Sequence record: OX638288
Origin: Escherichia phage UP19
DNA: 64,000 nt
Direction: 5' to 3' (one strand)
The position numbers were made by a program, and so were the translations under genes. Position 1 is the stretch's first letter, and every line of letters begins with the position of its first letter. Below, piece by piece: positions 2,507 to 17,731 of the stretch. The notes under the pieces are model-generated. The model worked only from the letters and a program-made list of their open reading frames with translations. It was not told the origin of the DNA and made no database searches.

Positions 2507-3466
2507 ATGATGCTAGTTATTGGTTCTCGTGCACTGCACCATGCAGGTCTGATTGAAAGTAAGTATATAGAAAATTCTGATTGGGATTTCATTGCCGACC
2601 AAGGCTCGTGGAATCAATTTAAAGCCCGGATGTTCGGTGCTCACGTTCCTGTGGATAATCCAGATGTCCAGGCTTTTAAATGCATGTACAATGGTAAAGA
2701 AACCTATTTTGAAGCTTATATCGTTCGTGCTCTGACTAACGTACGAGAAATTACCGGTGAGCTTCAAGACGAAGATTTCACTTCAAGCTATCGTCTCCTG
2801 AAATATGCTGAAACCCATATTCAAAAGGACCGTCTTACTGGTTTCTATTGGGCAACCCCTGATATCTGTCTGGCTATCAAAATGAGCCATCGTTATTTGA
2901 AGAACAACCCGTTCTTTTTGAAGACGATGTCCCACATCAAATATCTTCGTAATAAAGGTGTAACCTTGAATGAAGAGCTCCAAGAAATCATGTTGCAACG
3001 TCAGAAAGAAACGTTGAGCTATTCTCATCCTAAATTGGATGTAAACAAATCATCATTCTTTAATGATACCATTTATACGCTAGACCATGACTCTATCCAC
3101 GAAGCTGTGGCATTGGCTGGACGCCCTGCATATACCTTTTATATGAAGGAAGGTTCTGAAGTCATGACCTCACGTGAGAAGTTTGAAGCTTTGCCTGAAG
3201 CTATTAAACTGGCTGGCGTATATGAAGAAACTTGTGTGTTGGCCCTAGAACGTTCACAGGTTCCTAACAACTTTAATATTTCACCGTCATTAAGTTTCTA
3301 TATGGCTCTTGAGAAAGTGTGTACCTCAATCACTTCAGGCTGGTTCCGTGAGTATGCCTGGGAAAACTACCAAGCTGTAGTGAATATGTATAAGACCCTA
3401 GGTGAAAATGACTACATCAAGCGGTTCCAAGATAACCATCATTTAATTCGTCCTTTCGAAAAATAA
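2507..3466 (+). CDS. hypothetical protein (319 aa) with possible Pol-beta-type nucleotidyltransferase motif
   Basis: ORF track; GAGGAAA SD; N-terminal VIGSRAL...NSDWDF resembles the GS...DxD nucleotidyltransferase signature (weak). Confidence 0.6.
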   Translation: MMLVIGSRALHHAGLIESKYIENSDWDFIADQGSWNQFKARMFGAHVPVDNPDVQAFKCMYNGKETYFEAYIVRALTNVREITGELQDEDFTSSYRLLKYAETHIQKDRLTGFYWATPDICLAIKMSHRYLKNNPFFLKTMSHIKYLRNKGVTLNEELQEIMLQRQKETLSYSHPKLDVNKSSFFNDTIYTLDHDSIHEAVALAGRPAYTFYMKEGSEVMTSREKFEALPEAIKLAGVYEETCVLALERSQVPNNFNISPSLSFYMALEKVCTSITSGWFREYAWENYQAVVNMYKTLGENDYIKRFQDNHHLIRPFEK

Positions 3467-13209: not shown

Positions 13210-13392
13210 ATGTTAACTACTGAACAGATTGAGAAAATTATTAAACTCGCCCAGCATATTGAAAACGCATCCAATGACCTAGCTGTTGAATATTGCGAAG
13301 GTTATTCATATTCTGGAATAGAGCAGTGTAAACGAGATTTGGCTAACTCCAAAGCGGCCTTGGCTGAGTATCTTAATGAGTTGAAAGCATAA
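13210..13392 (+). CDS. hypothetical protein (60 aa)
   Basis: ORF track. Confidence 0.45.
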   Translation: MLTTEQIEKIIKLAQHIENASNDLAVEYCEGYSYSGIEQCKRDLANSKAALAEYLNELKA

Positions 13393-13649
13393 TGGCTGTT
13401 GGATTTGCTAAGGACGGAGCCGAACAGCTCGAAATGGAAGCGGTCGTTCAGGCCGCTATAGTACACGCCCGTAAGCAAGTAGCAGTTGAACGTGAATCGG
13501 CTAAATATTGTTTTGATTGTGATGAAGAGATTCCTGAAGCACGACGTCAAGCTATCAAAGGTGTGATATATTGTATAGGTTGTCAGTCAATGCATGATGA
13601 AATTTTTAAACGTGAGCCACGTAACTGTTGGCACAGGAGCATGAGATGA
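13392..13649 (+). CDS. DksA/TraR-type C4 zinc-finger protein (85 aa)
   Basis: CFDC-x17-CIGC spacing typical of TraR/DksA zinc fingers. Confidence 0.55.
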   Translation: MAVGFAKDGAEQLEMEAVVQAAIVHARKQVAVERESAKYCFDCDEEIPEARRQAIKGVIYCIGCQSMHDEIFKREPRNCWHRSMR

Positions 13650-13948: not shown

Positions 13949-14509
13949 ATGATTATTGAAACAACTGAATTGTTTGGCGAACTGACCGCTGAAGTAGTTA
14001 ATAATGCAATTGAGCTTTGTCAAGAAGACGATAAAATCGTACTGACTATCCAAGATATTAAACCACTTTATGATTTAAAGGTTTTGGATAAAGATGGGTA
14101 TCTTGATGGACGCCATAGAGCATCGTTTGATATTAACGACGATGTATGGGCCCAGATTTATAAAAATGAAGACGGATTTAATATCGAAACTGATACTGAA
14201 TGTCTAAGCATTAGGAATTCTAGTAATTTCTTTAAATGTATTTTTAAACTGTTCCAGGAAGAATGCAAGCCAGAAGTTGAATGGAAAGTTCCAGGTCAAG
14301 ATGCAGTGATTCGTTCTAGTGAAACATTTGAAGGTGATGAAGAAGAACTGGATTATGATACCGAATTAACCGTGTATCAACACCAGGGTCGTGATTTGCT
14401 ATCCTTGACCCAAAGACACGACGGTGAAAATGAAGTGGTATTTACTAAAGACGAGCTAAAAGTTTTAGTCTCTTATCTGAACTCTGTTATCCCAACTATG
14501 AACCCTTAA
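13949..14509 (+). CDS. hypothetical acidic protein (186 aa)
   Basis: ORF track; GAGGA SD. Confidence 0.55.
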   Translation: MIIETTELFGELTAEVVNNAIELCQEDDKIVLTIQDIKPLYDLKVLDKDGYLDGRHRASFDINDDVWAQIYKNEDGFNIETDTECLSIRNSSNFFKCIFKLFQEECKPEVEWKVPGQDAVIRSSETFEGDEEELDYDTELTVYQHQGRDLLSLTQRHDGENEVVFTKDELKVLVSYLNSVIPTMNP

Positions 14510-14519
14510 GGAAAATATT

Positions 14520-14972
14520 ATGATTATCAATTCAAACTCTTGGCACGTTAAATTACACGACCGTTTTTATGACCGTCATTCTCGACCACACTCTTTGTGT
14601 GCTTATTTCTGGAAAATGGTTTGGGCTTGTTTTGCTTGTGCTGTTGTTGCAGGTAGTACGCTTTTTGGATTAACTGTTGCAGGAGCTGGTGTATTAGAGC
14701 ATTTCTTTGTATTAAGTACTCCTGTTCTGTTGAGTCTAGGGTTTGTTTTAGGGTTGATTGCAATAGCTCTTATTATTGCTCTATCCATTGGTTTGGCATT
14801 AGGTGCGATGAATTTACACGCGTGGTATGATGCACGTAGAGAAGAAAAGGAATGGCAACGTATTCAAGCTGAGCGTGAAGGCCGAGAAACTAAAGAAAAT
14901 ATCGTCGTCCAATACATTAAAGCTCGTAAATCTAAGATGTGTCCTGTAATTCACTTCGAGAACAAAGAATGA
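14520..14972 (+). CDS. hypothetical membrane protein (150 aa)
   Basis: ORF track; multiple hydrophobic helices. Confidence 0.55.
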   Translation: MIINSNSWHVKLHDRFYDRHSRPHSLCAYFWKMVWACFACAVVAGSTLFGLTVAGAGVLEHFFVLSTPVLLSLGFVLGLIAIALIIALSIGLALGAMNLHAWYDARREEKEWQRIQAEREGRETKENIVVQYIKARKSKMCPVIHFENKE

Positions 14973-14980
14973 GAACAGTT

Positions 14981-15979
14981 ATGAAAGGCTACTTCGGTAG
15001 CCATCTTTATGGAACAAGTACTCCGGAATCTGATGTCGATTTTAAAGAAATCTTTGTTCCACATCCGCGTGATATTCTGTTAGGTACGGCAATGAATCAT
15101 ACCAACCTGAACACGAATAACACTGCTTCCAAAAACACTAAAGATGATGTTGACCATGAGCTTTACAGCCTGAAATATTTCTTTAAACTGGCTGCTGAAG
15201 GCGAAACCGTTGCTCTGGATATGCTCCACACTCCGCCTGAAATGGTGGTTAAATCCGATTTACCTGATGTATGGAAATTTATCCAAGATAACCGTTCGCG
15301 TTTCTATACAACTAACATGAAAGCCTATTTAGGGTACGTTCGTAAGCAAGCTTCTAAATATGGTGTTAAGGGTTCTCGTCTGGCTGCTCTGCGTGGTGTA
15401 CTGGCTATCGTTAACCAGATTCCTGAACAGTGGGTTGATTATCAAGAAGATGGTTCTACTAAGCAACGACGTACTAAGGTAGAAGATATTAAGCACCGGC
15501 TCCCTGAAAACGAGTTCTGTGAATGGGTATTTCATAACCACGAGAAAACAGGTCCTCAAACGTTCTATACTGTCCTCGGACGTAAGTACCAAACTACTCT
15601 GTCATTGGTCGAGCTTAAGCAATCTCTGAATAAACTTGATGCAGAATATGGCGAACGTGCTCGTAAGGCTGAAGCTAATGAAGGTATTGACTGGAAAGCT
15701 CTGAGCCATGCTTATCGTGCTGGATATCAGTTGAAGGAAATCTATATGACCGGTGACCTTCAATATCCTTTACGAACAGCACCATTTATCCTTGAAATCA
15801 AACAGGGGCTACATGCTTTTAAAGATGTACAGGCTGAGCTCGAAGCTATAGTTGATGAAGTCGAAACCAATGCCATCTGGGCAGCTAAGAACGGTATGCC
15901 TGATAAGGTAGATATGAAGTTCTGGGACAAGTTCGTTGAGCAGGTTTACCTAGAAAACCATAACTCGTATTATAAATGA
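14981..15979 (+). CDS. Pol-beta-superfamily nucleotidyltransferase-like protein (332 aa)
   Basis: ORF track 14939..15979 trimmed; N-terminal GSHLYGTSTPESDVDF matches the GS-x(9-13)-DxD signature. Confidence 0.65.
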   Translation: MKGYFGSHLYGTSTPESDVDFKEIFVPHPRDILLGTAMNHTNLNTNNTASKNTKDDVDHELYSLKYFFKLAAEGETVALDMLHTPPEMVVKSDLPDVWKFIQDNRSRFYTTNMKAYLGYVRKQASKYGVKGSRLAALRGVLAIVNQIPEQWVDYQEDGSTKQRRTKVEDIKHRLPENEFCEWVFHNHEKTGPQTFYTVLGRKYQTTLSLVELKQSLNKLDAEYGERARKAEANEGIDWKALSHAYRAGYQLKEIYMTGDLQYPLRTAPFILEIKQGLHAFKDVQAELEAIVDEVETNAIWAAKNGMPDKVDMKFWDKFVEQVYLENHNSYYK

Positions 15980-15982
15980 TAA

Positions 15983-16002
15983 AAGGCCTTCGGGCCTTTT
16001 TT
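15983..16002 (+). terminator. rho-independent terminator
   Basis: AGGCC-TTCG-GGCCT followed by TTTTTT. Confidence 0.7.
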
Positions 16003-16022
16003 GGGTTTAGTGCAAAAAAGTA

Positions 16023-16051
16023 GTGTACATCTGCTTTAAACATGTTATTAT
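16023..16051 (+). promoter_or_regulatory. T4-type early promoter (GTGTAC, 17 nt, TATTAT)
   Basis: near-identical to the cassette at 16335-16363. Confidence 0.5.
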
Positions 16052-16101
16052 AGACCTATCAGCTAAAGAGCTGAAAACTTAAACCAAACGGAGATATAAA
16101 A

Positions 16102-16332
16102 ATGTACGCTATCAAAAATTACAAATACGGTTCTTACACTACTAACTTGATCGCTCTGGAAGATACCTTTAAAGCTGATCGTGCTGAAGAATATGAAATT
16201 ATTGAAGCTGTAACTAAAAACAAAGGTAAACAAGTTGTTATGCCTAATGGCCGTAAAGCTGCTCTTTATACAGTAAATGGTGAAACATGGGCCCGCTATA
16301 AAGATGGCTTCTGTGAAATTATTGCAAAATAA
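16102..16332 (+). CDS. hypothetical protein (76 aa)
   Basis: ORF track; GGAGA SD. Confidence 0.55.
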   Translation: MYAIKNYKYGSYTTNLIALEDTFKADRAEEYEIIEAVTKNKGKQVVMPNGRKAALYTVNGETWARYKDGFCEIIAK

Positions 16333-16334
16333 GT

Positions 16335-16363
16335 GTGTACATCCATTTCAAACATGTTATTAT
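16335..16363 (+). promoter_or_regulatory. T4-type early promoter (GTGTAC, 17 nt, TATTAT), duplicate of 16023-16051
   Basis: shared core 'gtgtacatc...aaacatgttattatagacctatca'. Confidence 0.5.
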
Positions 16364-16398
16364 AGACCTATCAAATCTACTGAGTGAAGGAGAATAAA

Positions 16399-17379
16399 AT
16401 GTTAACTATCAAAATCAACAAAGGTATCTATCGCGGTAATGAAATCTCTGGTACGTTCATGAGTTCAGGTAAAACCTGGTTCCCAAATAAAATTCATGAA
16501 TCTGAAGCTCACCTCGGTGATGGCAAGGTATTCGTGCAGATTGATGGTGTTGAACGTGGTGTATGGGTGTTCAAATGTGACGTTGAAATGGAAGGCGCTG
16601 AAGCTCCTGCAATGGTTACTGAATCCGCTGAAGAAATGAAACATCGTATCAACAAACGTTTTAAAGTAATGAACATGATGACTAACGGAATCATCGATGG
16701 TAAAATTCGTTCCCTTATCATCTCTGGTGCCGCAGGTATTGGTAAAACTTATTCTTTGGATAAAGCATTACAGAATGCCCACGAAAATGAAACTATCGAA
16801 TATAAATCAATCAACGGAAAGATTAGTGGAATCGGTCTTTACGAGCAGCTTTGGAATAACCGCGGCCCTAATAGTGTTCTTCTTATTGATGATGTTGATG
16901 TATTCTCTGACATGGATATTCTGAACCTTCTGAAAGCCGCATTGGATACCGGTGAGAAACGTAAGGTGTGCTGGAGCACTTCAAGTTCTTATCTCGATGA
17001 TAAAAATATCGATAAAGAATTCGAATACGAAGGCACCATCGTGTTCATCACCAACGTTGATATTGACCGTGAATTAGAGCGTGGAACTAAACTTGCTCCG
17101 CACCTCCAGGCTTTAGTATCTCGTTCAGTTTACTTAGACCTCGGAGTTCACTCTAACGAAGAGATTATGGTTCGTGTTGAAGACGTTATCCTGTCCACTG
17201 ATATGATGCAAAATCGAGGTCTGACCGATGCTGAGACTTATCAAGCACTGGCATGGATGAAGGCTAATGTATCTCGTCTTCGTAACGTATCATTACGTAC
17301 AGCTCTTTATCTGGCGGACTTCATTGCCACCGATAAAAATGACTGGAGCGAAATCGCTGAAGTTACACTTCTGAAATAA
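16399..17379 (+). CDS. AAA+/P-loop ATPase-like protein with N-terminal extra domain (326 aa)
   Basis: ORF track 16384..17379 (GTG) trimmed; Walker A GAAGIGKT, Walker B LLIDDVD. Confidence 0.65.
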   Translation: MLTIKINKGIYRGNEISGTFMSSGKTWFPNKIHESEAHLGDGKVFVQIDGVERGVWVFKCDVEMEGAEAPAMVTESAEEMKHRINKRFKVMNMMTNGIIDGKIRSLIISGAAGIGKTYSLDKALQNAHENETIEYKSINGKISGIGLYEQLWNNRGPNSVLLIDDVDVFSDMDILNLLKAALDTGEKRKVCWSTSSSYLDDKNIDKEFEYEGTIVFITNVDIDRELERGTKLAPHLQALVSRSVYLDLGVHSNEEIMVRVEDVILSTDMMQNRGLTDAETYQALAWMKANVSRLRNVSLRTALYLADFIATDKNDWSEIAEVTLLK

Positions 17380-17389
17380 AGGTGAAATT

Positions 17390-17731
17390 ATGTTTGAACA
17401 ATTTATTTACAATCTTTATAAAGCAGGTTTGGCCCATCGTAATGCCATGAAACAGTCCGTCGAGGACTATGATAAAGAAGTTATCGACGGATATACTAAT
17501 AGAGTTTATAAAACAGATTGTGAAGAAGGAGACTACAAGAGACTGCTCTTGGCTGCGAAGACTCAGGCCTTAATAAATCTAGACCGTAAGCAGGTAAAGT
17601 TGGCAGGCGACTTCCGAGGTGAACTCTGCGCCATCAGGAATGAATATCGCATTCGTATTGAACATCAACGGAAACCTAATACCCAATCAGCGTGGTTTAG
17701 TGGACATGCCGGTGAAAAAAGTTTCTATTAG
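17390..17731 (+). CDS. hypothetical protein (113 aa)
   Basis: ORF track. Confidence 0.5.
   Translation: MFEQFIYNLYKAGLAHRNAMKQSVEDYDKEVIDGYTNRVYKTDCEEGDYKRLLLAAKTQALINLDRKQVKLAGDFRGELCAIRNEYRIRIEHQRKPNTQSAWFSGHAGEKSFY

Follow-up and report, generated by a model that had tools for sequence, protein, structure and literature searches.

What does a T4-like phage do with a Pol-beta-superfamily nucleotidyltransferase (NTase)? The question is raised by an open reading frame (ORF) of Escherichia phage UP19 (sequence record OX638288), of which we analyzed a stretch of 64,000 nucleotides, hereafter the window. A sequence-only reading of this DNA had flagged positions 14981-15979 as encoding an NTase-like protein of unknown role. 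We report here that this gene is orthologous to T4 nrdC.11, and we propose, with a probability of roughly 0.6, that its product is an active long-form RlaP, which would add one or two nucleoside monophosphates (NMPs) to the 3'-OH of damaged RNA in tRNA repair. The gene itself is already annotated, has already been assigned to RlaP and has already been pointed out in the literature, and its product is probably active and otherwise ordinary. All window features described below lie on the plus strand.

The flagged ORF is orthologous to T4 nrdC.11

The window belongs to a T4-like phage: its bases 14000-17500 share 97% DNA identity with Escherichia phages JS98 and JS10 (Dhakavirus), and its gene order is collinear with the tk-nrdC early region of T4. 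The flagged frame exists and ends with a TGA at 15979, as the sequence-only reading had placed it; read from the ATG at 14981, it gives MKGYFGSHLYGTSTPESDVDF, which agrees with the N-terminus described there. The proposed start fared less well. The ATG at 14981 is an internal one, and the ATG at 14969 is more likely to be the start, because it overlaps the stop of the upstream gene (14520..14972) as ATGA and yields 336 aa, the usual length of the homologues. This length is common to most of them, to T4 NrdC.11 and to the JS98 RefSeq coding sequence (CDS), and the residues that the earlier start adds complete beta-strand 1 of the AlphaFold model. We thus place the nrdC.11 ortholog at 14969..15979 (336 aa plus stop), from the ORF listing and the comparison with T4 and JS98.

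The window protein aligns without gaps to T4 NrdC.11 (NP_049709.1), with 83% identity, and RefSeq labels both T4 NrdC.11 and the JS98 CDS 'nucleotidyltransferase'. The position of the gene, between nrdC.10 and the mobD.1 block, is also common to both phages. The immediate surroundings differ: in T4 the homing endonuclease gene mobD lies directly upstream of nrdC.11, whereas the window carries there an ORF for a 150-aa membrane protein, and downstream of the nrdC.11 ortholog the window differs from T4 by a 76-aa ORF. Genes of the nrdC.11 type are present in 1,614 phage records, mostly from T4-like phages of Enterobacteria, Aeromonas, Acinetobacter and Vibrio. The full-length architecture is represented by 3,180 clusters at 50% identity when matches are taken at E<=1e-3, and by 796 at E<=1e-30.

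A conserved signature and a probable catalytic triad

Conservation was assessed in two alignments. The first, A1, holds 127 homologues from T4-like phages (69-92% identity) and from a marine-phage clade (26-34%), while the second is wider and compares six sequences of phage, bacterial long-form and canonical 269-aa RlaP. The GS-x(9-13)-D-x-D signature that had been recognized from the letters is real: it takes the form hGS-x10-DhDh (G10 S11 ... S21 D22 V D24; 14996..15040) and would constitute the binding site for nucleoside triphosphate (NTP) and metal. G10, S11, S21 and D22 occur in all 127 sequences, and D24 in at least 90% of them. Within the open frames of at least 80 aa in the window, the loose pattern G[GS]x9-13Dx[DE] occurs five times, and its strict form, with hydrophobic context, in the flagged ORF only. 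This sole strict occurrence, together with the conservation in the 127 homologues, argues against a match by chance. The same alignment has further invariant residues in E64, D84, K134, R137, K206, R230, D241, K243, S246, H247, R250 and K278.

The wider alignment keeps G10, S11, G15, S21, D22, D24, D62, L86 and R250 invariant. As D22, D24 and D62 do not change from phage to canonical RlaP, they most likely form the catalytic triad, which would be intact in the window protein. D62 (15152..15154), on beta-strand 61-67, is thus the probable third catalytic carboxylate and would serve as a metal ligand; it is replaced by E in the marine clade. Our first idea for the third carboxylate had been E64 or D84, and the wider alignment favours D62. 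The acidic residues D60 and E64, on the same strand as D62, and D84 are likewise conserved.

The protein is a long form of the RlaP family

The call of a Pol-beta-superfamily NTase was borne out by family searches. Pfam PF10127 (RlaP, 'RNA repair pathway DNA polymerase beta family') matches the protein with 41.6 bits (cut-off 23, E=1.5e-10), PHROG 388 'nucleotidyltransferase' matches it end to end (E=1e-131), and the catalytic acidic residues are conserved. Most of the listed homologues carry the PF10127 annotation. In a published network of PF10127, T4 NrdC.11 falls in cluster 5 and canonical RlaP in cluster 1a, and NrdC.11 is labelled 'RlaP of unknown function' (preprint PMC12776372).

In hhalign, the A1 profile pairs from end to end with a Deferribacter protein of 338 aa (probability 99.1%, E=1e-18), which itself covers positions 2-246 of the 249 in PF10127. 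At the level of sequence, the Deferribacter protein is the bridge between long-form and canonical RlaP. The tie of the C-terminal domain to PF10127 is indirect, through this intermediate; canonical RlaP itself aligns at the N-terminus only. The T4 type has in common with canonical RlaP the PF10127 domain, the hGS...DxD motif with a third Asp, and a two-part layout with an NTase domain and a helical domain. It differs in its length (336 aa, versus 269 aa for the canonical RlaP examined), in a conserved beta-hairpin insert and in a divergent C-terminal domain.

An AlphaFold2 model was built on the 127-sequence alignment (mean predicted local distance difference test score, pLDDT, 86.9). It predicts an alpha/beta NTase core of the Pol-beta type at aa 1-115 (14969..15313), a long helix at aa 118-148, a beta-rich insert at aa 154-208 (15428..15592) and a C-terminal helical bundle at aa 213-335 (15605..15973). 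The sequence-only reading had expected a helical region of roughly 300 aa behind the motif, which this order of core, helix, insert and bundle corrects. It had also named an unrelated fold or a loss of the catalytic Asp as grounds for giving up the assignment; the model has the NTase core and the catalytic Asp residues are conserved. The insert, delimited from AlphaFold strands and conservation, comprises strands 154-158, 164-168, 184-191, 195-202 and 205-208, and its hairpin carries the motif Q197..V202.G204.K206, in which Q197, V202, G204 and K206 hardly vary, if at all. The bundle, presumed to line an RNA/NTP-binding cleft, conserves R230, D241, K243, S246-H247-x-x-R250, P267-L268 and K278. 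We also looked in the bundle for a HEPN-type RNase motif and rejected it: R-x4-6-H is not conserved, and S-H-x-x-R is. A Foldseek comparison of the model with the PDB returned no match at E<1e-3, and a protein sequence search of the PDB no match even at E<=10.

Relatives of the gene lie in RNA-repair neighbourhoods

RNA repair has its founding example in T4, where PseT and Rnl1 mend tRNA to counter PrrC. JS98, the annotated phage closest to the window, encodes, elsewhere in its genome, pseT, rnlA (Rnl1) and an stp-like PrrC activator peptide. RlaP is the most prevalent NTase of jumbo-phage RNA-repair systems, and has been predicted to replace nucleotides lost to nucleases such as RloC, ahead of ligation (Iyer et al. 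2021, PMC7824862). The RlaPs of P. fluorescens and P. aeruginosa (PfRlaP and PaRlaP) add 1-2 NMPs onto an RNA 3'-OH, which they require; they prefer Mn2+ and mimics of damaged tRNA, and show little NTP specificity (December 2025 preprint PMC12776372). DNA and proteins are not substrates, and E. coli proteins were left unlabelled by the bacterial RlaPs. With the Pseudomonas enzymes, tRNA lacking one nucleotide partly regained its aminoacylation, and the RlaP structure consists of an NTase domain and a helical domain with a cleft between them (PMC12776372).

We examined the contexts of four full-length bacterial relatives of the long form, from Bradyrhizobium, Asticcacaulis, Deferribacter and Rhizobium. 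RtcB or Hen1-Pnkp clusters, which represent two ligase types, surround three of the four. The Bradyrhizobium relative (38% identity) is preceded on the same strand by RtcB, two unknown genes and an HD-domain gene. The Asticcacaulis plasmid pASDW145_1 encodes, consecutively and on one strand, Hen1, Pnkp, the long NTase (327 aa), which is 37% identical to the window protein, and a canonical RlaP of 269 aa that scores 236 bits with PF10127 (contig L019, 2077..7790). On the Deferribacter megaplasmid, RtcB lies about 2.5 kb upstream of the 338-aa NTase, on the same strand. Embedding in RtcB or Pnkp/Hen1 RNA-repair clusters is a trait that relatives of the T4 type have in common with canonical RlaP. 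As a separate observation, HipA-family toxin genes occur about 2-3 kb from the long-form RlaP on the Deferribacter and Rhizobium plasmids (L020 8829..10106; L021 8991..10298), a proximity that may be a coincidence. A scan of genome contigs with back-translated patterns, which were narrow, recovered three loci only. One of these, in Flagellimonas, resembles phage or prophage DNA and offers no repair context.

All seven contigs examined from the marine-phage relatives have a member of the PolyA_pol/CCA-adding-enzyme family (PF01743, often with HD) 0-3 genes upstream of the NTase gene and on its strand; the other neighbours vary from contig to contig. The seven loci are L002 3610..5924, L005 4319..6969, L007 3080..6005, L008 3748..5999, L016 2589..5981, L018 3188..5981 and L017 1815..5984, the last with an IS605/TnpB element inserted between the two genes. 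An Rnl2-type ligase is found within 5 kb in one of the seven. Class II CCA-adding enzymes (PF01743) likewise add untemplated nucleotides to RNA 3' ends and belong to the Pol-beta superfamily, but they are of another family and architecture, and their product is a defined CCA instead of the 1-2 nucleotides added by RlaP.

A model for RNA 3'-end restoration

The RNA-repair clusters and the CCA-family neighbours of the relatives make the restoration of RNA 3' ends in tRNA repair the likeliest function of the gene. We infer the same chemistry for the T4-type long form, as well as its substrate and a role in counter-defence. Our model suggests that the N-terminal core would bind an NTP and two divalent metal ions, probably Mn2+, through G10-S11, D22, D24 and D62, and that the helical domain and the beta-hairpin insert would together form a basic cleft (K134, R137, K206, R230, K243, H247, R250, K278) for the RNA 3' end. 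Where a broken RNA is missing nucleotides, its 3'-OH would receive one or two untemplated NMPs; such an RNA could be a tRNA half shortened by an anticodon nuclease of the RloC type, or a tRNA trimmed at its 3' end. Beforehand, the phage polynucleotide kinase-phosphatase PseT would strip the 3' phosphate, and the completion of the repair would fall to RNA ligase 1 or to the host CCA-adding enzyme. Since Rnl1 is a 5'-phosphate ligase, the 3'-OH product would suit it. The nrdC.11-mobD.3 block can be deleted from T4 (PMC9825161), and this dispensability fits an accessory or counter-defence gene.

Several observations weigh against this model. The first concern the family assignment: the PF10127 match spans profile positions 26-142 of 249, and thus the N-terminal half of that model only; the A1 profile aligns with the canonical 269-aa RlaP over the N-terminal motif alone (53 columns, hhalign probability 38%); and the beta insert has no counterpart that aligns in this canonical protein. 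The others concern context and chemistry. No RNA-repair gene is adjacent to nrdC.11 in the window or in T4; the window gene adjoins the membrane-protein gene, mobD.1, the 76-aa ORF and the nrdC.10 ATPase gene, with no RNA ligase or other RNA-repair gene among them, and the T4-type gene is not ligase-adjacent in T4-like phages, unlike canonical RlaP. No ligase lies within 6 kb of the Rhizobium relative, and the seven marine-phage contexts, all drawn from one clade, do not count as independent. The presence of long and canonical RlaP in a single Hen1-Pnkp cluster suggests that the two are probably not redundant. Finally, the addition of 1-2 NMPs is known from the two Pseudomonas RlaPs only, neither of which is of the T4 type.

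A bolder version of the model, which we hold tentatively and consider possible but doubtful, is that the long form with its beta-hairpin insert is a functionally distinct enzyme, either a third component of the PseT/Rnl1 pathway or a partner of the CCA enzyme, which would reverse the action of nucleotide-excising nucleases, for instance those of the RloC type, or the trimming of acceptor ends. This reading fits the coexistence with canonical RlaP and the strict synteny with CCA-enzyme-family genes in marine phages. If true, the restoration of excised nucleotides by NrdC.11 would explain how T4-like phages could overcome nucleases such as RloC, which had been regarded as making repair futile, and the T4 repair pathway would gain a third enzyme that is widespread, given the 1,614 phage records.

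Alternative explanations

The synteny in marine phages also suggests a different target for equal chemistry. The enzyme might act at the tRNA acceptor end, where it would restore nucleotides beyond CCA (e.g. the discriminator base) and the CCA enzyme would rebuild the CCA; this partner would be phage-encoded in the marine phages and the host Cca in T4-like phages. The CCA-enzyme-family gene stays 0-3 genes upstream in all seven marine-phage relatives despite their differing surroundings, even where IS605/TnpB has been inserted between the two genes, and the long form beside a canonical RlaP in one cluster hints at a division of labour. All of this synteny stems from one clade, however, and may simply have been inherited, and T4-like phages, including the relatives of the window, have no adjacent CCA-enzyme gene. 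In addition, the RtcB and Pnkp/Hen1 genes beside the bacterial long forms point to the sealing of breaks and not to the rebuilding of ends. We regard the acceptor end as an unlikely target for these reasons, and retain the repair of broken tRNA as the preferred function.

A role against host defence through another chemistry could also be imagined, in which the protein would synthesize a signalling or decoy nucleotide or oligonucleotide, in the manner of HalB or the CD-NTases, or would modify a small molecule, as the aminoglycoside NTases do. We find this improbable. The matches to such proteins reflect the generic NTase core, at 8-14% identity; Foldseek gave none at E<1e-3, PADLOC had no match, and neither Pfam nor NCBIfam matched the protein to the CD-NTase or ANT families. 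HalB of the Hailong defence system (PDB 9dbh/9dbj), which makes oligodeoxyadenylate, has 217 aa and 14% identity and lies outside PF10127, and Hailong pairs HalB with HalA, whereas the window gene is without a HalA partner. Kanamycin nucleotidyltransferase acts on small molecules, and neither it nor the NTase-like protein 3c18 has significant sequence similarity to the window protein. In contrast, the family that matches significantly is RlaP, and the neighbourhoods are those of RNA repair.

Still less probable, in our view, is an MNT-type protein NTase that would AMPylate and thereby neutralize a HEPN RNase toxin of the host, or some other defence protein. The sole NCBIfam match, the MntA model NF047752, stayed at 12.9 bits, below its cut-off of 60, and aligned over the GS...D motif only. 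No HEPN gene adjoins the window gene, the protein conserves S-H-x-x-R instead of R-x4-6-H, and bacterial RlaPs did not label E. coli proteins (PMC12776372). Lastly, a catalytically dead or vestigial NTase-like protein, with which the dispensability of the nrdC.11-mobD.3 block in T4 in the laboratory would agree (PMC9825161), is hardly credible, as all catalytic positions and more than 25 others are invariant across homologues down to about 27% identity and the gene is found in 1,614 phage records.

A second nucleotidyltransferase in the window

The sequence-only reading had pointed to a weaker NTase candidate at 2507..3466 (IGSRAL...NSDWDF). This ORF is present as described and is a separate gene, corresponding to JS98 orf122 and similar to RB69 ORF134c. 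Its structure model (pLDDT 92.7) has an NTase fold of the MenT/AbiEii type, and two domains can be distinguished: an N-terminal NTase fold resembling MenT, AbiEii and ANT(2'') (DUF7277), followed by a very conserved C-terminal DUF7275. A Pfam scan at E<=1 returned no families but DUF7277 and DUF7275, and thus no match to AbiEii. Across 87 homologues, D25, D27 and E69 never vary and G6 and S7 hardly do. The spacing from GS to DxD is 17 residues, outside the canonical 9-13. The family also conserves K125-x-x-H-R and D193-H-D-x-x-H, and a C-terminal stretch, GVYEExCVLALER...KVCTSITSGWFREYAWE, is nearly invariant.

This family is present in 734 phage records, almost all of them labelled 'hypothetical', and neither DUF7277 nor DUF7275 was mentioned in any paper found by our literature search. 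A profile-profile comparison of the NrdC.11 family with that of 2507..3466 gave no relationship (probability 0.5%), which indicates that the two NTases of the window are independent. PADLOC had no match for either of them. The product of 2507..3466 genuinely has an NTase fold, and of the two candidates it is the more novel.

Neighbouring features

The 150-aa predicted membrane protein encoded at 14520..14972, in the place that mobD has in T4, belongs to phrog_944 and resembles RB69 ORF104c. Further upstream, an 85-aa ORF (13392..13649) contains a C4 zinc finger of the DksA/TraR type (PF01258, E=1.6e-9), and in JS98 it is annotated as similar to Pseudomonas aeruginosa PA4870. No tRNA genes were found in the window.

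Directly after the nrdC.11 stop, a terminator-like hairpin with a T-run is predicted at 15981..16008 from a consensus match only, with an 8-bp stem containing four GC pairs, the loop TTCG and the tail TTGGGTTT. The 76-aa ORF between nrdC.11 and nrdC.10 (16102..16332) has a GGAG ribosome-binding site. RefSeq shows no CDS at this place in JS98, but the ORF has a match in phrog_33156 (E=2e-18) and is probably a gene that the annotation missed. The nrdC.10 ortholog follows at 16384..17379 and encodes a P-loop ATPase (GAAGIGKT, phrog_1250) with weak AAA/STAND-like and helix-turn-helix-like Pfam matches. A promoter-like element, TGTACA and TATTAT separated by 16 nt and with an upstream TG, is repeated at 16024..16051 and 16336..16363. 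The first copy follows the putative nrdC.11 terminator and lies beside a TGCTTTA that resembles a MotA box, and the second precedes nrdC.10.
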